DNA of 32,000 nt from Candidatus Thalassarchaeaceae archaeon (GTDB taxonomy: Archaea > Thermoplasmatota > Poseidoniia > Poseidoniales > Thalassarchaeaceae). Of the stretch, positions 14,921 to 29,676 are shown piece after piece (the stretch's first letter is position 1; each line of letters begins with the position of its first letter). The notes beneath the pieces are model-generated. The model saw nothing but the letters and a program-made list of their open reading frames with translations. It was not told the DNA's origin and ran no database searches. A program made the position numbers and the translations under genes. The stretch is from assembly GCA_045568075.1 (NCBI GenBank), contig JBJLBP010000001.1:1410001-1442000 (forward strand), in the 5' to 3' direction.

Positions 14921-17356
14921 TCAATCTCTGCGACCTGCCATAGCAGCGCCTAGCAAACCAATCGTCACCATCAGCGCGCCGAAGCCAGGTAGCATCTCAG
15001 CAGTTGCGAACGATTCGGAAGTGTACTGGTCGGCCCAAGTGTCGTACAGTTCGACCTGGACGTCTGGCCAGAGATTGTCAATGACCAAGATATCCATATC
15101 TGAAATCAAGCCATCACCGTCGTAGTCTAGGTACTCATAGGTGAATACGTACTCAGTAAGTGCGGGATCGACCGTAGCTGAGCCCTCAGTAAGTCCGTTT
15201 GAGGCGGCAACCGTGCAGTTCGAGATAGGGGGCTCGTTGCCCTCCTCGTCAGGCTCACCGCAATCGAAAAGGAACCTGACCTCGAAGTCCGAGATAGGAG
15301 CGTTCAGAGTCTGGCCCATGACCATCATGGTGACTCGGAATGGTTCGTCGTTTCCTCCTTCACCGTCGCCATCATCGTCCTCATCAGACATGATTTCATC
15401 CCACATTTCAGTGAACTCGTAGATGTCGAGGCCGTCGCTGTCATCGTAGTCGTACATGTCCATCGTGTAAACGAGACCGTTGAAGTTATCTTCATCGATA
15501 ATGTCACCAGTAGAGTTGGAGAAGTCGGCCCACTCAGAGGGAGTGACCTGCCCATCACCGTCAGTGTTCATCCATTCGAAGACTTCGTCGGCAGACGGAT
15601 CGTCACCATCGCCTTCGTCATCGCCAAACATTTGCGTAAATTCGTCGAGGTTCAACAGGTCGTCCCCATCGGTATCACCGTAGGAGAACCAGGTGGCCGT
15701 TTCCTCCTCTTCGTCGCTGGACATAGGTTCCTCCCCGTTCTGCTCCCTGTCGTTGTTGAGGAAATCGATGAGTTCCTGCAGGCTCACATAGCCGTCGTCG
15801 TTTGTGTCCATGTAGTCCATCATCTGCTCAGGATTCTCATCACCACCATCGGGTAGCATGTCTACGATGCCGTCGACGAAACACTGCATCTCGTCGATGT
15901 CGATCAAGTCGTTGACGTCATAGTCGCAATCATCGAACAGGATTGTGACCTCGTCGTAGTCGAGTTCGGGGTTTTCTGGATTGGATTCCCAGGCGTCCTG
16001 GAACTCCTGGTAGCTCATGTAGCCGTCACCATCGGTGTCTACGTCCTCCATGGCCTCTTCGGGGGTTGGGGGGCCATCGTCGCCTTCATCGTCGCCATCG
16101 TCGCCATCGTCGCCTTCATCGCGATCGTCTGATCCCGACCACTCATCTCCTCCAGATTCCCACTCGTAGGACTCGCTTTGTCCGAAGTCGTCAGTGCAAT
16201 GCCAGCCGTCATCCTCGTGGTCCTCACAGTAATACCACCAAGTGTCCCAATCTTCATCATCTTGTGATTCCTTACACCACCAAACGGTTTCCTCGTCGCC
16301 TGAGTTTCCATTCCACTCGCAATAGCCGCTCCAGTAATCCTGCCAAGAGACGTCGTTTTCATCACGGTCATCGTCGCCATCGTCGCCATCGTCACCATCG
16401 TCGCCATCGTCCCAGTTGTCCTCGGGCATACCATCAATGTGGAAATTGATTGGTATCGAGGTCCTTGGTAGAGTGTCATCGACCTCGATGACTACGGCGT
16501 CTCCCCACATCACTGTGTAACTGATTGAAGAGCTGGCAGAGCCGTTGTCGGTGGAGATATCGTAGGACATGAGGTCCTTGTTTTCGTCGATCAAGATGGC
16601 GATGGAAGTGGTGTGTTCGGTATCGTTGGTGTATTCGAGGGTCATTTTCTGCACCCCAGTCTCACCCACATAAGTGATCACAGGCTCGGTATCGGCAGGC
16701 ATCTCGCTGGACAGGTCGCTAATATCACCCGTCGGCAGATTGAGTCCCATCTCGTCTCCGGCATCGCCTGCATCAGACGCACTCACCAGTGAGGAGATGG
16801 TTTCCATCACATTGGGGGTCGCATCCCTAGTCTGGTACGAGCCCATTCCAGCGCCGTCGCCTGCCATCATCCCGCCCACGGAGTAGTGGACGTTGACGAG
16901 TTCACCAACCTGAACCTGAGTGTACTCGTAGGTCATGAAAGGCACCATCGACATGCCCATCTTTACGTAAACCGAATCGGTATCCAAATCGGCCATCACC
17001 ATCTCCTCAATGGTCGTGTCCATCTGCATGTTCATGTCGCTATTCCACTCGCTTGTCGTGATTAACATCGAGTAACCTGCTTGAGGGATGGTGTCGAGCA
17101 TCTCATCTATCTCCATCTGCTCGGTCATGGCGGTCATGAAGGCCTCCATCGAGGCTAGGTAGATACATTCGCCCAACAGTTCCGCAGTGGCGTTATCGTC
17201 GTAATTTTCGGCGTTCTCGTCCATGCATCCGAGGATGTCGTCGACGATTTCCTCGATTTCGGGGCTAGTAGTACATCCAGCCAATGGGGTTGCGATTAAA
17301 ATTAGGCTGGCAAGTATAGCATATGCTCGGGTCATCGAACTTACAAGATAACGCAT
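14921..17356 (-). CDS. extremely acidic secreted calcium-binding (EF-hand repeat) lipoprotein with PGF-CTERM archaeal sorting signal
   Basis: N-terminal signal with lipobox (ILASLILIATPLAGC). At least six canonical 12-residue EF-hand loops (DTDGDGYMSYQE, DTNDDGYVSLQE, DTDGDDLLNLDE, NTDGDGQVTPSE, DYDDSDGLDIYE, DYDGDGLISDMD). GDD low-complexity tracts. C-terminus LPGFGALMVTIGLLGAAMAGRRD has the form PGF + TM helix + basic tail. Confidence 0.8.
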   Translation of the reverse strand: MRYLVSSMTRAYAILASLILIATPLAGCTTSPEIEEIVDDILGCMDENAENYDDNATAELLGECIYLASMEAFMTAMTEQMEIDEMLDTIPQAGYSMLITTSEWNSDMNMQMDTTIEEMVMADLDTDSVYVKMGMSMVPFMTYEYTQVQVGELVNVHYSVGGMMAGDGAGMGSYQTRDATPNVMETISSLVSASDAGDAGDEMGLNLPTGDISDLSSEMPADTEPVITYVGETGVQKMTLEYTNDTEHTTSIAILIDENKDLMSYDISTDNGSASSSISYTVMWGDAVVIEVDDTLPRTSIPINFHIDGMPEDNWDDGDDGDDGDDGDDDRDENDVSWQDYWSGYCEWNGNSGDEETVWWCKESQDDEDWDTWWYYCEDHEDDGWHCTDDFGQSESYEWESGGDEWSGSDDRDEGDDGDDGDDEGDDGPPTPEEAMEDVDTDGDGYMSYQEFQDAWESNPENPELDYDEVTILFDDCDYDVNDLIDIDEMQCFVDGIVDMLPDGGDENPEQMMDYMDTNDDGYVSLQELIDFLNNDREQNGEEPMSSDEEEETATWFSYGDTDGDDLLNLDEFTQMFGDDEGDGDDPSADEVFEWMNTDGDGQVTPSEWADFSNSTGDIIDEDNFNGLVYTMDMYDYDDSDGLDIYEFTEMWDEIMSDEDDDGDGEGGNDEPFRVTMMVMGQTLNAPISDFEVRFLFDCGEPDEEGNEPPISNCTVAASNGLTEGSATVDPALTEYVFTYEYLDYDGDGLISDMDILVIDNLWPDVQVELYDTWADQYTSESFATAEMLPGFGALMVTIGLLGAAMAGRRD
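16076..16129. repeat. 9-nt periodic microsatellite-like tract (ATCGTCGCC)n encoding GDD repeats
   Basis: atcgtcgcc units, interrupted by ttc, read directly; they encode DDGDDGDDEGDDG on the minus strand. Confidence 0.8.
16370..16411. repeat. second (ATCGTCGCC)n tract encoding DDGDDGDDGDDGDD
   Basis: Four and a half tandem 9-nt units with one G-to-A variant, read directly. Confidence 0.8.
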
Positions 17357-19959: not shown

Positions 19960-20826
19960 TCAAGCCATCATTGCGGTTGCCTTCTTGGCACCCATCCATG
20001 CTACGACACCGAATCCAATCTTGTTGATCATATCAGCGATGTTGTAGAGCACAGCCATGGTCTCCTGATTGACGCTTTCAGAGATTGCAACCTCTGGGCT
20101 GAACAGGTAACCGATTGGGTAGATTAGCCATCCGACGCAGATGAACCAGCGTAGAGCGTTGGTGCTCCACATTAGCTCTGGCGCGATAGCGTTGTTGTCA
20201 ACCCCAAGTCCTGAGGTCCACGGGGTTCCTGTGGCAACGATGATCATTGCCCATCCCATTCCGCCCAGGGCGAGAGCGAGATACGCGTTCATCATTCCAG
20301 ACTCACCAGCGTAGCCGAAGCCAATCATGATTAGAGCACCTAGGAAGCAAATTGCGGTGAATCCCATGCCTGCGAACTTTGTATCGGTTATCGCGTCCTT
20401 GCCGACAAGAGACGGGAACTTCAGTGCCATCAGAGGCACTGTGATAATCCAGTCCATGTATCGGTACTCTATACTGACCAAATTGTGGTCGATATACACG
20501 CCGCGCATGTAGTAGTAGTGCATTGCAGCGATACCAACGATGAGTGCAGAAATGGTCATGGTCGTGCGGAATTGAGGTGCAACGCTGTTCCTCTCAACTA
20601 GGAAGAAAACGAATGCCGCACCCATGGCAATGTATCCGACGAAGAAGGTGAAGAAGGTCAGCATCCCAAGGTTATCATATCCCTTGGTGGCTGGGTTCAC
20701 GGTCTCAGCAGACACAGATTGTGTGACAATCAATGCTAGGCAGGTAATGGCCATAGCCATGGCAGTCGTTCTTGGGCTAATTTTGGGATTGGGAAAATCC
20801 ATGTGTGTCGTGAGTAATATTTGCAT
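19960..20826 (-). CDS. proteorhodopsin-family microbial rhodopsin (light-driven pump)
   Basis: Helix C is YRYMDWIITVPLMALKF (compare PR RYIDWLLTVPLLICEF). Helix B His lies in AAMHYYYMRGVY. Helix G is YNIADMINKIGFG with the retinal Schiff-base Lys. Seven hydrophobic helices. The true start may be the internal ATG giving the signal-like MAMAITCLALIVTQSVSAE (near 20760). Confidence 0.9.
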   Translation of the reverse strand: MQILLTTHMDFPNPKISPRTTAMAMAITCLALIVTQSVSAETVNPATKGYDNLGMLTFFTFFVGYIAMGAAFVFFLVERNSVAPQFRTTMTISALIVGIAAMHYYYMRGVYIDHNLVSIEYRYMDWIITVPLMALKFPSLVGKDAITDTKFAGMGFTAICFLGALIMIGFGYAGESGMMNAYLALALGGMGWAMIIVATGTPWTSGLGVDNNAIAPELMWSTNALRWFICVGWLIYPIGYLFSPEVAISESVNQETMAVLYNIADMINKIGFGVVAWMGAKKATAMMA

Positions 20827-24122: not shown

Positions 24123-24284
24123 ATGACTCGTGGCGGAGTACTACGACTCGCGGCCCTCCTTGCGATGTTCGCCATGGTCACCTCGTGGATTCCAATGAGT
24201 GTGCCTAGTGACCAATTAGAGCAATTTGACGAGCGTCGGGAACAACTCGGTGGAGACGGAGCCGACGCTCGAAGAACAATGTAG
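24123..24284 (+). other. 53-codon ORF encoding only a signal-peptide-like sequence, probably the frame-displaced N-terminus of the following surface protein
   Basis: Hand translation gives MTRGGVLRLAALLAMFAMVTSWIPMSVPSDQLEQFDERREQLGGDGADARRTM*. It is in a different frame from, and overlaps by 59 nt, the 24226-26121 ORF, which has no signal peptide of its own. Confidence 0.5.
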
Positions 24285-26121
24285 CTCAATCACATTCGAA
24301 GATATGTTCGAATATTCGAGGGGAATCTTCGACATAGAGGTTGCAAGCGATTGGAATTCTGCCCAAGTGACAGCAGTTGCTTGGGTTAATGGAAGCCTTG
24401 CCGACGATGTAAGAGCGAGTTTGGACACGTATGTAGCAGCGGTATATCCCAGTGGGGACGATGGATGGATCTCCACAGACGAGAGAGAGGGGGTTCGAGC
24501 AATCGCCTCTGAGTGTGTTGAACACACGCTGACACGAATGGGAATGCGCGACGGTAGTCCACACCGTGGAGGAGATGGAACCGACTGGAAGAACATCTCA
24601 TGGACTGAAAATGATGTTCTGGTTGAGGAGTGGAATTTGGTGCCTCTACGACATTCAGAAATCAGAGATTGTACAGGATTCGGAAGTAGCAGCGACTGCG
24701 TCGAGGTTCCTGTCGCTCCAGACAGCGATCGTGATTGTGACGAAGATGTCGATGCATCTGCTAACGTTGACGAATGCCGAATGATGCTTTGGCTCAATGC
24801 TACACTCACAATCTCGAATATTGATGACCCCAGTGAATTCACATTGGCTTTCAACGCCTCTAACATGTCTAATGTCGAATACCACATCAAATTCCCTGTG
24901 ACTGAGGGGCTCCGCCTCGATATGTGGGAAGAATGCGAGGGGCGAGATGTCGAGGTGGAGACTGGTGATTATGCCGGTATTGCACCGCTTCGCGGGAGTT
25001 GCGTCGGTGATGGATCGAGCACCTATGAATTAGTCGAGAATGACGATGGTAGCCTGACCTATTCCTTCTACCCTCATATGCCGCAATGGCCGTCTGGTGA
25101 GGATTTGTTCGCCGATTTCACCACGGCACCGATTCCAGTGGATAATCCTCCACAATGGACTGATGATGCTCCTGACGATGAATCATGGTTCCCACGCGCG
25201 AGCGGGGGAGCACAGGTCATAGCCAACTGGAATGATATCCAGAATTGGTTCGTCGACGAGGCCGGAACCGCCTCGCTCGAGGTCAGTTGCCGAGGCGACG
25301 AGGGGCTCATGATAACCTACGAGGATCGAGAGATTTCGATGGATGTCCCTCGTGGTGAAGCCGGCGAAGTGACTTGCGAAGGAATAGACCGATCCGGCCA
25401 GTCCTCAGGTAATAGGACATGGAGTGTCGGTGTTCCGTTCCAGATTTCTAGCTCATCTATGGATCTAGCCGACCCTCATCCAATCACACTCAGCCCTACT
25501 TCAGGGTGGCCTGCTCTGAACGTAGAGGTCGGATTCACGTCCGAGCATGATAAGGCCGGAACTTACTCTGGACCTTACTCTCTATACATGTCCGAAATCA
25601 CCGCAGATGTCGCTGCAACCAGCACCGTTCCAGGTCCAGCCTATGTTGCGATTCGAGTGACAGGAGATGGTGTTTACACTATGGAAGCAATTTATGATCT
25701 TGGAATAGAAAAGGCTAGCAGAGCCCCAGTAATGACTGTGAATAGTGAGGGATGGGACAGCGACTCATGGATGATGAGCGGACAATTCTCAGACCCCGAT
25801 GGAGAGGAGGTGACGTTTACTTTGATGATAGATGGATCATCTGTTGGAAACATCGCTGTCAATGGAAATACCTGGTCTACTCCGACTATCGACTTCTCGG
25901 TCTGGGCTGAAGGAACTCACACGGTCGAAGTGACTGGTTGTGATGTCTCAGGTATGTGCACCAGCCAACAGCGAGTGGTGGATAACTCGCACCTATTCGT
26001 CGAACCTGAGCCTGAACCAGATGCGCCAAGCGAATCATCCTCTAGATTGCCTGCGATGGGATTGCCTGGGCTGATTCTCGCAGCATCTGCCGCACTCATA
26101 TACTCGGGCCGACGCGCCTGA
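24226..26121 (+). CDS. large acidic cell-surface protein with C-terminal Pro/Glu linker, PGF-like (PGL) hydrophobic anchor and basic tail; 5' end uncertain (possible frameshift)
   Basis: 631-aa ORF whose listed start is TTG; the frame opens only at 24220, after TAG at 24217-24219. Ig-like C-terminal region. It ends EPEPEPDAPSESSSRLPAMGLPGLILAASAALIYSGRRA. No enzymatic motif recognised. Confidence 0.7.
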   Translation: MTSVGNNSVETEPTLEEQCSSITFEDMFEYSRGIFDIEVASDWNSAQVTAVAWVNGSLADDVRASLDTYVAAVYPSGDDGWISTDEREGVRAIASECVEHTLTRMGMRDGSPHRGGDGTDWKNISWTENDVLVEEWNLVPLRHSEIRDCTGFGSSSDCVEVPVAPDSDRDCDEDVDASANVDECRMMLWLNATLTISNIDDPSEFTLAFNASNMSNVEYHIKFPVTEGLRLDMWEECEGRDVEVETGDYAGIAPLRGSCVGDGSSTYELVENDDGSLTYSFYPHMPQWPSGEDLFADFTTAPIPVDNPPQWTDDAPDDESWFPRASGGAQVIANWNDIQNWFVDEAGTASLEVSCRGDEGLMITYEDREISMDVPRGEAGEVTCEGIDRSGQSSGNRTWSVGVPFQISSSSMDLADPHPITLSPTSGWPALNVEVGFTSEHDKAGTYSGPYSLYMSEITADVAATSTVPGPAYVAIRVTGDGVYTMEAIYDLGIEKASRAPVMTVNSEGWDSDSWMMSGQFSDPDGEEVTFTLMIDGSSVGNIAVNGNTWSTPTIDFSVWAEGTHTVEVTGCDVSGMCTSQQRVVDNSHLFVEPEPEPDAPSESSSRLPAMGLPGLILAASAALIYSGRRA

Positions 26122-26125
26122 GGCC

Positions 26126-27244
26126 ATGAGCTTCTCCGGTACGGTCGAGAAGGAGTCCTATGAGGGCGGCCTGATGGTCGCATTCGAGGGTCGGGCACCG
26201 CGTCTCGGTGCAACACTTCGCGTCATTGGTGGGAAGCCGATTGGGCGCGTGAATACTGTCATTGGTGCCGTCGATCGCGCTCTCATTCACATTCATCCTT
26301 TGGCAGAAGGAATCGAGGCCTCGAGCGCTGTCGGTTCTCCTGTTGAAATCGCTCCGCGCGAGCGTCGCGAGCGCTCCGACCGAGGCCGTGGTGGCTACGA
26401 CCGCCGCGACAATAGCCGAGGCCGAGATGGTGGGGGATTCCAGCGTCGTGACGGTCGAAGTAATGACCGAGGGAACAATCGAGGAGGAAATCGCGGTGGC
26501 GATTGGGATTGTCCGAAGTGCAATAACAACAATTTCTCATTCCGCGACAAATGCAACCGTTGTGAGGCTGAGCGCCCAAGCGGTGGTGGAAATTCCCGTG
26601 GCGGTGACCGCGGAGGCTACCGAGGTGGCGACAGGCGAGACAATCGTGGTGGTAACCGACGCGATAATCGCGGAGGAGACCGTGGAGGAAATCGCGGAGG
26701 GGATTGGGATTGCCCTAAGTGCAAGAACAACAACTTCGCATTCCGTAACAAGTGCAACCGTTGTGAGGCTGAGCGCCCAAGCGGTGGTGGAAATTCCCGT
26801 GGCGGTGACCGCGGAGGCTACCGAGGTGGCGACAGGCGAGACAATCGTGGCGGAGACCGACGCGATAATCGCGGAGGAGACCGTGGAGGGAATAGCGGCG
26901 GAGATTGGGATTGCCCTAAGTGCAAGAACAACAACTTCGCATTCCGTGACAAGTGCAACCGCTGTCAAGCAAATCGTCCGAGCGGAGGTGGCTCCAGTGG
27001 TGGAGGTAACCGAGGCGGCTCACGCGACGGTGGAAACCGCAGTGGGAACAACCGTGGTGGATACCGTGGACGCGACTCGGGAGGAAGTGACCGCAGAGGT
27101 CCAAAATCCTCTGATTCACGCGATGGTGGCGGCCGAGGAAGAGCTCCCGGAAGCAGCAGCCGACCGCGCCGATCTGGATTCAGAGGCACAGGTCGTGGCG
27201 GCTTCCGTGGCAACCGACCAGGCCGAGGCAGCGGTCGACGTTGA
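26126..27244 (+). CDS. Gar1-like (H/ACA RNP) core fused to an RGG/GAR-rich region with three RanBP2-type zinc fingers
   Basis: aa 1-80 follow the archaeal Gar1 pattern (G.V......GGLMV.....AP.LG..L.....KPIGRVNTVIGAV...LIHIHP......VGSPVEI). Three exact matches to W-x-C-x2-C-x3-N-x6-C-x2-C occur at aa 127, 194 and 261 (for example WDCPKCNNNNFSFRDKCNRC). The remainder is RGG/RDN-rich and ends RGGFRGNRPGRGSGRR. Confidence 0.7.
   Translation: MSFSGTVEKESYEGGLMVAFEGRAPRLGATLRVIGGKPIGRVNTVIGAVDRALIHIHPLAEGIEASSAVGSPVEIAPRERRERSDRGRGGYDRRDNSRGRDGGGFQRRDGRSNDRGNNRGGNRGGDWDCPKCNNNNFSFRDKCNRCEAERPSGGGNSRGGDRGGYRGGDRRDNRGGNRRDNRGGDRGGNRGGDWDCPKCKNNNFAFRNKCNRCEAERPSGGGNSRGGDRGGYRGGDRRDNRGGDRRDNRGGDRGGNSGGDWDCPKCKNNNFAFRDKCNRCQANRPSGGGSSGGGNRGGSRDGGNRSGNNRGGYRGRDSGGSDRRGPKSSDSRDGGGRGRAPGSSSRPRRSGFRGTGRGGFRGNRPGRGSGRR
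26475..26985 (+). repeat. 201-bp in-frame tandem repeat, about 2.5 copies (one RanBP2 finger plus RGG linker per unit)
   Basis: The marker gattgggatt recurs at 26501, 26702 and 26903, exactly 201 bp apart. By manual alignment copies 1 and 2 share a perfectly identical run at 26553-26649 and 26754-26850. Confidence 0.9.
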
Positions 27245-27291
27245 GTCAGCCTCACCCCAGCATTCATCTCGTCTTCTCGTGAGCAGTGCCT

Positions 27292-28368
27292 ATGGCGCGA
27301 AGCGCGGAGATGCTCTGGATCGACGTGCTTGAGCACGAAGAATCGGGTGAGCGCGAGGAAGCCCTCGAACTCGCCCGCCACATTACTCGACTAGACCCCG
27401 ACCATGCAGCTGCTTGGAAGATGGTCGCGCGCATGACACTCCCTCCTTCGAGGCGCGGGAAAAGCGAGATGCCAACACTGGCACAGGCTGCGAGCGCGCT
27501 CGGGGCACTACGCCAAGTCGTCAAACTCGAACCCAACGACCGAGATTCTTGGATTCTCGGTGGAATCCTCCTTGTCGATCACCTCGGAATGCTCGAAGAA
27601 GCGTTGGTCTGGTGGCAGGAGCGTCGAGCGGTTGAACCGACAGAGGTTACACCTTTGGTAGAGCAGATTGCGATTCTTGTACGATTAGGTATGTACACAC
27701 GAGCTGGAGAATTGCTTGAAATTCTCTTCAGTCCTGAGATGGAATCACCTGATAACCGTCAATTAGTGAAGATGGATCAGGTTCGAAAAATGGTCGAAAA
27801 GGCTGCGAAAATGGAGAAAGATGAGGTTTTCCGTCCACAAAATCCAGAACACCCCCGATGGGAAATTATTGAGCGTATGAAGGGTCGAAAACCGCTTTCT
27901 GAGACGTTTTTTCTGTTCACTTTCGTCGCCCCTATTGTCTTCCTAATAGGAACTGTCGCGATGCAGTTAATCGGTCAGTCGAAATATGGATTTTTGTTGG
28001 TTTTCATCATCATACTCGGTCTTTTCATGCTGGTTAGTCGAATGGGTTCTGGACTCCTCCACACACTCAATAGACACGCCTTAGACCTTGACCGAGCGCT
28101 CGACGTAGAAGCAACTGCAGGGAAGTTATGCGTGCCTGAGGACATTCGTGGTAGTAAGCTGTATGAGCACCTACTCGGGAATCGGCCTGAAGCTTTTCGA
28201 GAGCGACATCTGAAGATTGTTGAAGCGGATGAGAATCTTGTTGTAAAGTGGCGGCCGAATATGCCAAATTTTGCAGTTGAGGCTGAGTGGTGGGATAATT
28301 CTGATGATTCTGACGAAGATGATTCTGAGAGTGACGAGCCCATCGAGTTAGATGGCCTCGAGGATTAA
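27292..28368 (+). CDS. hypothetical membrane protein with TPR-like helical N-terminus, two TM helices and an acidic C-terminal tail
   Basis: The ATG at 27292 is preferred over the ORF-track GTG at 27286. The N-terminal ~190 aa are helical repeat-like (EEALELARHITRLDPDHAAAWKMVARM). Hydrophobic helices FFLFTFVAPIVFLIGTVAMQLIG and FLLVFIIILGLFMLV. C-terminal tail NSDDSDEDDSESDEP. Confidence 0.55.
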   Translation: MARSAEMLWIDVLEHEESGEREEALELARHITRLDPDHAAAWKMVARMTLPPSRRGKSEMPTLAQAASALGALRQVVKLEPNDRDSWILGGILLVDHLGMLEEALVWWQERRAVEPTEVTPLVEQIAILVRLGMYTRAGELLEILFSPEMESPDNRQLVKMDQVRKMVEKAAKMEKDEVFRPQNPEHPRWEIIERMKGRKPLSETFFLFTFVAPIVFLIGTVAMQLIGQSKYGFLLVFIIILGLFMLVSRMGSGLLHTLNRHALDLDRALDVEATAGKLCVPEDIRGSKLYEHLLGNRPEAFRERHLKIVEADENLVVKWRPNMPNFAVEAEWWDNSDDSDEDDSESDEPIELDGLED

Positions 28369-28370
28369 TC

Positions 28371-29636
28371 TCATGTGCCGGCTGAGTAATCGTTCAGATA
28401 ACTCAATTGTTCGGCTGTGAGACTATCGATGCTGACCCCTTCTGCGGCGAGTTTGAGTGCCGCTAATTCGCTGTCCTGCTCGGCACTAATGTCGTAAACG
28501 ATATTGTCGTAATCCTTGCCTTCTGCCGCTAGGCGACAAAGGGCTAGGAATTGGTTAGCGAATGACATGTCCATGACTTCACTCGGGTGACCTTCGGCGG
28601 CTGCTAGATTGACGAGGCGTCCGCGAGCAAGGAGGTGGATGGTGCGGCCACCAGAGAGTTCGAATGCCTCGTTATTCTCACGGATTGTGTAAACGCGAGA
28701 GGCGCGCTGCTCAAGATCGGGTATGTTGATTTCGCAGTCATAATGGCCCGTATTACAGATGATTGCGCCTTCCTTCATCGAATCGAAGTGACGACCAACA
28801 AGGACGTCCTTCATTCCAGTCGCAGTGCAGAATACGTCACCAATGGCTGCGGCATCATCCATTTTCATCACTCGGAATCCATCCATCACAGCCTTGAGAG
28901 CGGGAAGTGGGTCAACCTCGGTGATGACAACGTTTGCACCCATTCCACGAGCACGGTTTGCCAAGCCCCTGCCGCAGTGACCGTAACCTGCGACCACGAA
29001 TGTCTTGCCAGCTAGTAGCACGCTCGTCGCTCGAATAATTCCGTCAAGAGTCGACTGGCCAGTTCCATGGACATTGTCGAAATCCCACTTGGTCGAGGCG
29101 TCGTTAACTGCGATTACAGGGTAACGAAGCTCTCCCGCCTCGCCCATGGCTCGTAGTCGATGGACGCCAGTAGTCGTCTCCTCAGTTCCTCCAATGACTC
29201 CTTCAGCGAGTTCGGGATATTCTGCGTGTACTCGATAGATGAGATCCGCACCATCATCGAGAGTAAGGGTCGGCTTGAAATCGAGAGTGCTATCTATTGA
29301 TTGGTAGAACTCCTCGTTATTCTGTCCATACCAAGCGTAGACACTGTATCCCTCAGCAGCAAGCCAAGCAGCCACCTCATCTTGGGTCGAGAGTGGATTG
29401 CAGCCAGACCAAGAGACCTCAGCACCTGCTGCTTCGATGGTCTCGATCAGAACCGCCGTCTCCTTGGTAACGTGTAGACAACCAGCCACTCGTTGGCCGG
29501 CGAGTGGCTGATCTTTCTCCGCCTGGGCGCGCAATGCAGCGAGAGCGGGCATTCTGCTTCGCGCCCATGCGACCTTCAGACCTCCAGACTCTGCAAGTGA
29601 AAGGTCTGCCACAGTATAGCGCTCACCAGCGTCCAT
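28371..29636 (-). CDS. ahcY: adenosylhomocysteinase (S-adenosyl-L-homocysteine hydrolase)
   Basis: LHVTKETAVLIETI, DDGADL, TEETTTGV, NAD-binding VAGYGHCGRGLANRARGMGANVVITEVDP, GHYDCEI, NLAAAEGHPSEVMDMSFANQ. ATG at 29634-29636 (the ORF-track start at 29642 is GTG). Confidence 0.95.
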   Translation of the reverse strand: MDAGERYTVADLSLAESGGLKVAWARSRMPALAALRAQAEKDQPLAGQRVAGCLHVTKETAVLIETIEAAGAEVSWSGCNPLSTQDEVAAWLAAEGYSVYAWYGQNNEEFYQSIDSTLDFKPTLTLDDGADLIYRVHAEYPELAEGVIGGTEETTTGVHRLRAMGEAGELRYPVIAVNDASTKWDFDNVHGTGQSTLDGIIRATSVLLAGKTFVVAGYGHCGRGLANRARGMGANVVITEVDPLPALKAVMDGFRVMKMDDAAAIGDVFCTATGMKDVLVGRHFDSMKEGAIICNTGHYDCEINIPDLEQRASRVYTIRENNEAFELSGGRTIHLLARGRLVNLAAAEGHPSEVMDMSFANQFLALCRLAAEGKDYDNIVYDISAEQDSELAALKLAAEGVSIDSLTAEQLSYLNDYSAGT

Positions 29637-29676
29637 GTTCACCGGCGGTCACCGCCGGGTCTTCAAGGTGCGGCTT

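Follow-up and report, generated by a model that had tools for sequence, protein, structure and literature searches.

The 32-kb window, the whole stretch of archaeal DNA that we analyzed, contains on its + strand a gene (26126 to 27244) whose 372-aa product joins an 82-aa beta-barrel to three RanBP2-type zinc fingers and to linkers, about 200 aa in total, that are predicted to be disordered. The explanation that fits best, and that we consider likely, is that the gene encodes Gar1 in a Marine Group II archaeon (Thalassarchaeaceae, Poseidoniales), as the orthologue of other Gar1 genes, and that the tail of the protein tethers RNA. The reading frame begins with ATG and ends with TGA, which is included in the coordinates. 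The full-length AF2 model contains four confident modules, with pLDDT below 50 everywhere between them. One protein in the public collection (P0037) differs from the window's protein at one of 372 residues, and the N-terminal residues MSFSG are kept among homologues. Automatic annotation divides this one orthologue among three names ("zinc finger protein", "hypothetical protein" and "rRNA processing protein Gar1"). Overlapping open reading frames in alternative frames, at 26262-27332 (+), 26537-26968 (-) and 26965-27381 (-), are by-products of the repeat codons and not real genes.

The N-terminal barrel is a Gar1 core

We assigned the N-terminal domain (aa 1-82; 26126 to 26371, + strand) using its AF2 model, Foldseek, family profiles and hhalign. 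The model has six strands and a pLDDT of 90.2. When it was compared with the PDB, ranks 1-13 were all chains of H/ACA RNPs. Archaeal Gar1 came first, and eukaryotic Gar1 chains were among ranks 4-13. The best match was Pyrococcus furiosus Gar1 (2ey4_D; TM 0.79/0.84, rmsd 2.2 A). The Gar1-like domain of Naf1 and translation-factor barrels scored far below Gar1, and a Naf1-like identity was rejected because Naf1 chains were about 1000-fold worse than Gar1 in the Foldseek comparison.

For a single sequence the resemblance to Gar1 is weak, and it becomes significant with family profiles and the structure model. The barrel scored 13.4 bits against PF04410 (cutoff 29.3, E = 0.07) and 15.4 bits against the NCBIfam Gar1 equivalog NF009632 (cutoff 107, E = 0.017). 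Gar1 was nevertheless its top or only match in both the Pfam and NCBIfam libraries. A phmmer search of the PDB with the N-domain alone returned no Gar1, only a spurious match to uL22m at E = 1. A narrow profile built from Thalassarchaeaceae (A1) placed Gar1 chains in the top four positions, but at E = 0.27-0.59. The broader family profile (A2) was needed for significance. Its match to P. furiosus Gar1 (2hvy_B) spans 70 of 84 positions with E = 3.9e-5, and three further Gar1 chains follow at E <= 4.3e-4. PF04410 was matched by 22 of 24 family members and was the sole Pfam family matched by more than one of them. Comparing the barrel family with canonical Gar1 by hhalign gave an end-to-end alignment (81 columns, 98.9% probability, E = 2.4e-17), an E-value that is not fully independent because the canonical set came from matches of the same profile. 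Searching 1.84 billion representatives with A2 recovered 142 proteins in all. The weak end of this list consists of canonical Gar1 proteins of 75-99 aa, of which PF04410 matched nine of ten tested (seven above its cutoff). Members of the family were independently named "rRNA processing protein Gar1" by JGI. The barrel also carries the Gar1 signature block G-x-V-x-x-V-x-G...P...H/Y-V, together with a lineage-specific SHEGGLL motif. We conclude that the barrel is Gar1 by fold and homology. The first-pass annotation had recognized a Gar1 core in the first 80 or so residues and proposed PF04410 as the check. The core is upheld by Foldseek, the A2 profile and hhalign, through family-profile and fold tests rather than the curated single-sequence cutoffs.

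The same annotation described archaeal Gar1 proteins as normally consisting of the core only. This is not strictly so, as a short basic tail, 5-25 aa long, is found on many canonical archaeal Gar1 proteins. Archaeal Gar1 (P. furiosus; PDB 2EY4, 2HVY, 2RFK, 3MQK) shares the barrel fold (TM ~0.8, rmsd 2.2 A) and is homologous end to end, with an N-terminal core and a basic C-terminal tail after it in both cases. The two differ in that identity is only about 23%, and in that the tail here is 292 aa, RGG-rich and equipped with three zinc fingers, whereas theirs range from a few residues to about 25. In Poseidoniales, the tail seems to be an enlarged form of the short basic one on other archaeal Gar1 proteins.

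We surveyed 83 related loci, taking 10 kb to either side in each genome. The upstream neighbour (24226 to 26121, + strand) encodes a 631-aa protein with a probable C-terminal membrane anchor and no Pfam match. The gar1 ATG lies 4 nt past its stop codon, with the same 4-nt spacing in two other loci (L001, L002), and the two genes are probably co-transcribed. Downstream lies a gene for a TPR protein (27286 to 28368, + strand; PF13428). Homologues of the upstream and downstream genes are present in 79 and 70 of the 83 loci, respectively. These neighbours flank not only the window's gene but also the short form without fingers and the Poseidoniaceae-type form. An apparent duplicate in one MAG (L059/L060) represents redundant contigs of the same locus. 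This syntenic gene is standard throughout the order Poseidoniales and is probably its Gar1 orthologue.

Finger number varies from 0 to 4 among these orthologues by lineage, and the Arg/Gly-rich tail is nearly always present. Fingers occur in both families, Poseidoniaceae and Thalassarchaeaceae. In the genome-collection survey, which used profile A1 and covers Thalassarchaeaceae, 31 of 67 species lack them; fingers are therefore dispensable for whatever the core does. Fingerless orthologues (P0020, 151 aa) occupy the same locus, have a barrel about 65% identical to ours and carry a similarly basic Arg/Gly/Lys tail, but they contain no cysteines or fingers and their tail is only about 70-90 aa. 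The architecture had been put forward as one not known from any archaeon. It is no one-off, being order-wide and in public databases, and our literature searches found no published description for Gar1 with Poseidoniales or for zf-RanBP/PF00641 with Marine Group II.

RanBP2-type fingers in an Arg/Gly-rich tail

The three zinc fingers lie on the + strand at 26495 to 26584 (aa 124-153; Cys129, 132, 143, 146), 26696 to 26785 (aa 191-220; Cys196, 199, 210, 213) and 26897 to 26986 (aa 258-287; Cys263, 266, 277, 280), and are spaced exactly 67 aa apart. Each had been reported as an exact match to the RanBP2 consensus, and a pattern search and Pfam agree. W-x-C-x2-C-x3-N-x6-C-x2-C occurs at aa 127-146, 194-213 and 261-280 (WDCPKCNNNNFSFRDKCNRC, WDCPKCKNNNFAFRNKCNRC and WDCPKCKNNNFAFRDKCNRC, in order). 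PF00641 (Zn_ribbon_RanBP) matches three stretches with 97.6 bits (E = 2.2e-28, cutoff 27), the best being finger 2 (aa 192-219), and is the sole Pfam family above cutoff on the full-length protein. A single finger alone scores 42.6 bits against the same cutoff. These scores place the finger match far beyond chance. AF2 modelled every finger confidently as short beta-hairpins, with 10-residue block-mean pLDDT of about 72-95 for finger 1, 86-90 for finger 2 and about 72-94 for finger 3.

Among solved structures, finger 2 comes closest to the RNA-bound finger of FUS (6g99_B, E = 2.1e-8), followed in the PDB ranking by Nup153 and then ZNF265/ZRANB2. The likeness to FET and ZRANB2 fingers lying between RGG boxes had been noted with a FUS sequence as reference; alignment to 6g99_B showed that sequence to be correct, and the contact positions bear out the likeness. 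All three fingers have D, N, F, F, R and N at the positions of FUS D425, N435, F438, W440, R441 and N445, whose roles in RNA contact are described for FUS and ZRANB2 (PMC12344763, PMC6384913). The contact residues of the subclass comprise an Asp that precedes the Trp, an Asn, an aromatic residue for stacking, an Arg, and an Asn ahead of the final CxxC. Among 211 unique family fingers, the equivalents of D425, N435, F438, R441 and N445, five positions that the search pattern does not force, are conserved at 100, 96, 97, 100 and 95%. The W440 equivalent is F, W or R across the family. The whole four-Cys pattern is present in all 293 family fingers, with CxxC as the first knuckle in each. Judged by these conserved contact residues, the fingers are of the single-stranded-RNA-binding subclass (ZRANB2/FUS type, to which EWS, TAF15 and RBM5/10 also belong) and are predicted to read GGU-like triplets.

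The sequence around the fingers is disordered by prediction (pLDDT below 50 in every segment). Linker 1 (aa 83-123; 26372 to 26494, + strand) is the RG/RGG sequence RSDRGRGGYDRRDNSRGRDGGGFQRRDGRSNDRGNNRGGNR. Linker 2 (aa 154-190; 26585 to 26695, + strand), GGNSRGGDRGGYRGGDRRDNRGGNRRDNRGGDRGGNR, and linker 3 (aa 221-257; 26786 to 26896, + strand) are RGG sequences that differ at two residues. The Gly/Ser/Arg-rich C-terminal tail (aa 288-372; 26987 to 27241, + strand) ends with RGGFRGNRPGRGSGRR, the last residues of the protein being GRGGFRGNRPGRGSGRR. The extension of about 290 Arg/Gly-rich residues that had been described counts to 292 aa (residues 81-372), is rich in RGG/RG and ends at its C-terminus as described. 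It contains 78 G, 65 R, 34 N, 30 D and 24 S, has a net charge of +39 and holds 19 RGG and 28 RG motifs; its 200 non-finger residues are 34% G and 28% R. Clustered RGG/RG repeats thus lie within a region of predicted disorder, as in a GAR/RGG domain. Most spacers between RGG motifs are Asp, Asn or Ser and a few are Tyr or Phe, and RGGFRG is confined to the C-terminus.

We compared this arrangement with known RNA-binding proteins. In eukaryotes, the Gar1 core has a GAR domain before and after it, with Phe/Ser spacers. Eukaryotic Gar1 (yeast Gar1p, human GAR1) shares the core and the Gly/Arg-rich (RGG) low-complexity sequence, but here the RGG sequence is C-terminal only, has Asp/Asn/Tyr spacers (RGGDRGG, DRRDNRGG) and includes embedded fingers. 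The arginine methylation and nucleolar targeting of the eukaryotic protein have no known counterpart here, and no methyltransferase gene lies within the 32-kb window. FET proteins (FUS, EWS, TAF15) share an RNA-binding-subclass RanBP2-type finger with RGG boxes around it, and five of six side-chain contact positions of the FUS finger are identical here, the sixth being aromatic. Unlike FET proteins, ours has no SYGQ-rich domain and no RRM (Pfam lists no RRM family on the full-length protein), its N-terminus is a Gar1 barrel, and it has three fingers instead of one. It is not a FET family member, and the likeness is limited to the RGG-ZnF-RGG module. ZRANB2 (ZNF265) also has multiple fingers of the same subclass, with the Asp, Asn, aromatic, Arg, Asn contact pattern conserved. 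Its Trp and Arg-Arg correspond to Phe and Phe-Arg here, a FUS-like variant, and it carries an SR domain where ours has the Gar1 core. The tandem RanBP2 fingers of ZRANB2 read GGU in single-stranded RNA, a property predicted for our protein from residue conservation.

Alternative accounts of the gene and the origin of its fingers

The repeat structure of the gene bears on whether the architecture is real. A tandem repeat at 26483 to 26965 (TRF score 840; no strand) consists of 2.4 copies, at 93% identity, of a 201-bp unit that encodes a single finger together with a single linker (67 aa in all), and a map of identity at offset 201 shows about 120 identical bases in one run. The window's gene has three fingers because this unit was recently duplicated in tandem. 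Short-read assembly handles such repeats poorly, frameshifted and truncated database entries exist (P0002, P0029), and a near-identical two-finger version is known that equals P0037 less exactly one 67-aa unit (P0038). These points would suit an architecture produced by contamination from a eukaryote, by chimerism of the contig or by wrong assembly of the repeat, which we regard as extremely improbable, as the barrel and fingers share one frame in the same archaeal neighbourhood in more than 100 independent MAGs or single-cell genomes. Contamination and chimerism are rejected on this replication and the archaeal context, and the copy number of two versus three alone could be an assembly issue. 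A more substantial alternative, still improbable, is that the protein is a neo-functionalised, Gar1-derived paralogue outside the H/ACA RNP, an FET-like RNA binder, with a separate canonical gar1 serving Cbf5. This would account for the divergent barrel that falls under the Pfam and NCBIfam cutoffs, for the SHEGGLL motif confined to the lineage and for conserved neighbours that encode a surface protein and a TPR protein and no RNA-processing genes. H/ACA partners are also absent nearby: the 32-kb window contains no cbf5, nop10 or L7Ae gene, and Rfam finds no H/ACA RNA in it, only a tRNA-Leu. However, gar1 and cbf5 are not generally known to form a cluster in archaea. The barrel matches canonical Gar1 end to end with the signature block kept, there is one conserved locus order-wide, and no surveyed MAG has a second family member. 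The nearest canonical-type Gar1 proteins could not be linked to Poseidoniales; a homology search with one of them (P0260) found only three proteins, whose contigs do not exceed about 1 kb. No Gar1-Cbf5 contact residues are named in PMC4551948.

The fingers themselves admit a different reading, in which they bind protein (as NZF fingers bind ubiquitin, or Nup153/RanBP2 fingers bind Ran) and recruit a partner protein in place of RNA. Most characterised RanBP2-type fingers among the PDB matches are protein binders (Nup153, RanBP2, TAB2/3, TRABID), with Nup153 at ranks third and fourth. We consider this reading very unlikely: the fingers have neither the Leu/Val-Val dipeptide that follows the second Cys in the Nup153 alignments nor the Thr-Phe dipeptide typical of NZF ubiquitin binders, every FUS/ZRANB2 RNA-contact position is kept at 95-100%, the top PDB match is an RNA-bound finger, and RGG linkers surround the fingers. 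Where the fingers came from is independent of what they do. They may have been born in archaea, or the RGG-finger cassette may have been transferred from a eukaryote before the Poseidoniaceae/Thalassarchaeaceae split, which we view as possible but less likely than not. Known RanBP2-type fingers are overwhelmingly eukaryotic. The match to FUS extends to a flanking Arg at -3 and Pro-x-Gly after the finger, the RGG-ZnF-RGG order mirrors FET proteins, and both families of Poseidoniales carry fingers. No other gene with fingers was found in 752 kb of Poseidoniales DNA, all of it drawn from this single neighbourhood, sampled again and again. Against transfer, the tail matches neighbouring genes in GC3 and codon usage, though an old transfer would have ameliorated; the invariant CxxC first knuckle differs from Cx4C in FUS; a 30-aa domain is too short for reliable phylogeny; and no donor emerged. 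Since the tail is RG-rich even in orthologues without fingers, that part of it needs no transfer.

A putative RNA tether on an H/ACA enzyme

Gar1 (PF04410, COG3277) is a subunit of the H/ACA pseudouridylation RNP that docks on the catalytic subunit Cbf5. In characterised archaea it governs product release and makes no contact with the guide RNA. Its role in characterised systems is exerted at the Cbf5 thumb loop, and the RGG domains of eukaryotic Gar1 are thought to be accessory RNA binders (PMC8096250). Most likely, the protein described here is the H/ACA Gar1 of its lineage, with a tail that would act as a multivalent tether for single-stranded RNA. In this model, the short basic C-terminal tail would have grown in the Poseidoniales lineage into a long disordered Arg/Gly-rich domain, into which one to four RanBP2-type fingers would have been inserted. 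The barrel would fix the protein to Cbf5-Nop10, and the protein could affect pseudouridylation. The fingers would bind zinc and RNA and read GGU-like triplets, and the RGG linkers would supply additional non-specific RNA affinity. Such a beads-on-a-string tail would capture single-stranded (pre-)rRNA or another RNA substrate, or keep it close to the enzyme, and the tail may also chaperone RNA folding or favour clustering. A stronger version, which we think unlikely, is a nucleolus-style scaffold, evolved independently or acquired anciently, in which arrays of GGU-reading fingers and RGG linkers on Gar1 cluster or condense H/ACA RNPs on nascent rRNA in an RNA-dependent manner. If true, it would mean that an archaeon has a membraneless ribosome-modification compartment made from the parts of nucleoli and FET granules, and that finger copy number evolves fast through repeat slippage.

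RGG/GAR domains on Gar1 and fibrillarin have been called eukaryote-specific and linked to the nucleus or nucleolus (PMC8096250, PMC7194090), and a published survey that ran HMMs on 148 archaeal and 212 bacterial proteomes detected no GAR-type regions whatsoever (PMC7608942). In the planktonic archaea that are most abundant in the surface ocean, Gar1 has an RGG-rich tail, which in many lineages also bears fingers of the FUS/ZRANB2 type. Low-complexity RNA-binding modules of the RGG/finger kind are thus not tied to possessing a nucleus. Orthologues with 0 to 4 fingers provide a natural series on finger/RGG valency in an H/ACA enzyme. The family also offers a concrete case in which RanBP2-type RNA-binding fingers either passed from one domain of life to the other, archaea and eukaryotes, or had two separate origins.

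Architecture of the window protein and identity of its barrel

The gene at 26126-27244 (+) is a real ORF whose 372-aa product differs at a single residue from P0037, a homologue in the public collection. The first-pass annotation described three RanBP2-type fingers within a long Arg/Gly-rich extension of the core, and both features were borne out. Three segments of the protein fit the RanBP2 consensus W-x-C-x2-C-x3-N-x6-C-x2-C, their Trp at residues 127, 194 and 261 giving a finger-to-finger spacing of exactly 67 aa. The HMM check with the Pfam family PF00641 returned three stretches (97.6 bits, E = 2.2e-28), and one finger by itself reaches 42.6 bits, the cutoff being 27. In residues 81-372, 27% of positions are Gly and 22% Arg, and this stretch contains 19 RGG and 28 RG motifs and carries a net charge of +39; Gly and Arg reach 34% and 28% in the 200 residues of linkers and tail outside the fingers. 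No other RGG-rich ORF was found within the window. Long alternative-frame ORFs at 26262-27332 (+), 26537-26968 (-) and 26965-27381 (-) overlap the RGG/finger region; we rejected them as genes and regard them as by-products of G/C-rich repeat codons. A full-length AlphaFold model, made with 51 homologues as input, is confident in four modules, namely the barrel (aa 1-82) and three fingers (approximately aa 124-153, 191-220 and 258-287; 10-residue block mean pLDDT of about 72-95). The linkers and tail (aa 83-123, 154-190, 221-257 and 288-372) have pLDDT < 50. The predicted architecture is that of beads on a string.

Matches of this protein sequence alone to Gar1 families were marginal, both for PF04410 (E = 0.07; 13.4 bits, cutoff 29.3) and for the NCBIfam Gar1 equivalog (E = 0.017), and a single-sequence phmmer search of the N-terminus against the PDB found no match. 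AlphaFold predicted a six-stranded barrel for aa 1-81 (pLDDT 90.2), and its top Foldseek match in the PDB was Pyrococcus furiosus Gar1 (2ey4_D; E = 1.3e-4, TM 0.79/0.84, rmsd 2.2 A across 78 columns). The first 13 Foldseek PDB matches were all Gar1-length chains from structures of H/ACA RNPs or the telomerase H/ACA lobe. We rejected a Naf1-like identity; Foldseek scores for Naf1 and translation-factor barrels lay orders of magnitude below those for Gar1.

Profile searches gave the same answer. Profile A2, built from the N-domains of 24 diverse family members, matched P. furiosus Gar1 among solved structures (E = 3.9e-5) and three further Gar1 chains (E <= 4.3e-4). The PF04410 check of aa 1-80 fell short for the single sequence; 22 of the 24 A2 members matched this family individually (best E = 6.2e-5), and no other Pfam family was matched by more than one of them. 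Searching 1.84 billion representative proteins with A2 found 142, and the weak end of this list (E 1e-7 to 1e-3) consisted of 75-99-aa proteins aligned end to end. Nine of ten weak-end matches tested also matched PF04410, seven above its cutoff. Aligning the Poseidoniales profile to these canonical Gar1 proteins with hhalign gave 98.9% probability and E = 2.4e-17 over 81 columns, the canonical set having been picked from matches to the same profile. The JGI pipeline had independently named family members 'rRNA processing protein Gar1'. Because comparisons of structure, of profile with structures, of profile with all proteins and of profile with profile converge, we conclude from predicted fold and profile homology that the barrel, though divergent, is a true Gar1 domain, as first suggested.

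Subclass of the zinc fingers

The solved structure closest to the window fingers is the RNA-bound FUS zinc finger (6g99_B, E = 2.1e-8), followed by Nup153 and ZNF265/ZRANB2. FUS recognizes GGU through D425, N435, F438, W440, R441 and N445 together with the flanking R422 (PMC12344763). The corresponding ZRANB2 residues are D4, N14, a stacking Trp, R19, R20 and N24, and in the FUS/EWS variant an aromatic residue replaces R19 (PMC6384913). All three window fingers carry D, N, F, F, R and N at the FUS contact positions and Arg at -3. Among 211 unique family fingers, the five contact positions that the search pattern does not fix are 100, 96, 97, 100 and 95% conserved, and the sixth is Phe, Trp or Arg. 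The window fingers lack the Leu/Val-Val motif behind the second Cys that is seen in Nup153 alignments. They also lack the Thr-Phe motif of ubiquitin-binding NZF fingers. With the contact residues conserved and both of these motifs missing, the fingers belong, by every available sequence criterion, to the single-stranded-RNA-binding subclass, in keeping with the proposed likeness to FUS and ZRANB2. By fold and profile homology the protein is a Gar1, and the PF00641 fingers that it carries are genuine and of the FUS/ZRANB2 subclass. It is not a FET protein, as a search with its full length put no Pfam family but PF00641 above cutoff and listed no RRM family.

One locus with a varying tail

The 120 full-length homologues listed all derive from MAGs of Poseidoniales or Thermoplasmatota; each has the barrel, and all but one have 1-4 fingers. 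A scan of species-representative genomes confirmed 103 loci, of which 80 were retained. These are all Marine Group II except for one from a MAG labelled Gammaproteobacteria (L082, PBUF01000091.1), a Marine Group II gar1 locus with the usual neighbours that is probably binning contamination. Two loci from one MAG (L059 and L060, ERP001736_co1_109) are contigs covering the same gar1 locus. We rejected paralogy here and treat them as redundant strain contigs, since upstream gene identity is equal.

Finger number was tabulated for complete ORFs from 67 species: 31 have none (median 164 aa), 15 have one (278 aa), 15 have two (256 aa) and six have three (297 aa). Finger number tracks the N-domain subgroups. 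The nearest named genome, 'Candidatus Thalassarchaeaceae archaeon cluster2-bin.113' (L008, JAQXEV010000012.1; neighbour proteins 93-97% identical), encodes a 379-aa orthologue with three fingers. An Arg/Gly(/Lys)-rich tail is present in nearly all 67 ORFs; a truncated ORF of 43 aa and a few fingerless ones that are long and atypical in composition depart from this, and none is a bare core of ~80 aa. The view that archaeal Gar1 is normally core only needs amending: canonical proteins often end in a short Lys/Arg tail. The Poseidoniales tail thus appears to have grown out of an ancestral short basic one.

The genes for a fingerless homologue (P0020) and a Poseidoniaceae-type two-finger homologue (P0115) lie in the gene neighbourhood seen in the window. 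It runs from glycerol-3-phosphate dehydrogenase through a phosphonate-type ABC transporter, a conserved protein of 630-670 aa, gar1, a TPR protein and (AdoHcy hydrolase) to a giant FG-GAP protein. The upstream neighbour is kept in 79 of 83 loci and the downstream neighbour in 70 of 83; most loci without one have a contig end within the flank. With neighbourhood and flanking genes conserved, the fingerless, two-finger and window forms are positional orthologues, and the evolving part is the tail. In the window, the upstream gene (24226-26121, +) encodes 631 aa that match no Pfam family and end in a hydrophobic anchor (...LPGLILAASAALIYSGRRA), and 4 nt separate its stop codon from the gar1 ATG. 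The conserved downstream TPR protein (27286-28368, +) is predicted to have membrane segments, and its C-terminus is very acidic (...DNSDDSDEDDSESDEPIELDGLED). Some entries in the databases (P0216, P0176 and P0181) have the Gar1 domain deep inside a longer product; P0216 looks like a read-through fusion, since its N-terminal part resembles the 631-aa upstream protein.

No cbf5, nop10, L7Ae, arginine methyltransferase or H/ACA RNA was found within the 32-kb window. S-adenosylhomocysteine hydrolase (28371-29642, -) lies two genes downstream of gar1 and is near gar1 in 39 of 83 related loci, which is probably coincidental housekeeping synteny with no link to arginine methylation. This hydrolase, the phosphonate-type ABC transporter, a rhodopsin and an archaeal-type 3-dehydroquinate synthase II are Marine Group II hallmarks. 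The bacteriorhodopsin-like gene (19960-20826, -), between the glycerol-3-phosphate dehydrogenase and transporter genes, looks like a lineage-specific insertion because three related loci (L001-L003) have a small 75-83-aa ORF there instead. The window also encodes an 811-aa EF-hand protein (14921-17356, -) with several pairs of calcium-binding EF-hands (EF-hand_7, _6, _1) and a remainder without Pfam match, and a common paired module of a MoxR-type AAA+ ATPase (AAA_3) followed by a DUF58 gene (323-2685, +).

Tandem Repeats Finder identified a repeat at 26483-26965 with a 201-bp unit (67 aa, finger plus linker), 2.4 copies and 93% identity, and the offset-201 identity map contains a run of ~120 identical bases. 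The third window finger stems from recent expansion. The two-finger homologue P0038 differs from the three-finger P0037 by one Asp-to-Glu change and by lacking exactly one 67-aa unit (aa 142-208 of the protein encoded in the window). Either near-identical populations truly differ in copy number, or assembly from short reads collapsed the 201-bp repeat. Two other database entries, P0002 and P0029, translate the gar1 gene with a frameshift, indicating that the repeat is error-prone in assemblies. The tail has a GC3 of 0.50 and the Arg/Gly codon choice of neighbouring genes, and so its composition gives no hint of recent acquisition from a foreign source.

Proposed role of the tail

In the archaeal H/ACA RNPs that have been characterised, Gar1 binds Cbf5 without contacting the guide RNA and controls product release by toggling the thumb loop; the RGG domains of yeast Gar1 modulate RNP dynamics and appear to contact substrate RNA (PMC8096250). 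The Poseidoniales barrel would keep the canonical Gar1 role, and the tail may add multivalent affinity for single-stranded RNA, with fingers binding GGU-type triplets and RGG linkers making non-specific RNA contacts. Such a tail could keep Cbf5-Nop10-Gar1 close to rRNA that is nascent or unfolded, or to other substrates, as a tether whose valency is adjusted through repeat gain and loss. The fingers are accessory and dispensable for core function, given that about half of Thalassarchaeaceae species are fingerless.

RGG/GAR domains on Gar1 and fibrillarin are eukaryote-specific in the literature (PMC8096250, PMC7194090), and a study that ran HMMs over 148 archaeal and 212 bacterial proteomes reported finding no prokaryotic GAR-type regions (PMC7608942). 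The first-pass annotation knew this architecture from no archaeon, and in the literature searched we found no paper tying Gar1 or zf-RanBP to Marine Group II. The family's sequences are already public under inconsistent automatic names. We found no earlier description of this lineage-wide elaboration of an H/ACA subunit, which parallels eukaryotic nucleolar and FET-type modules.
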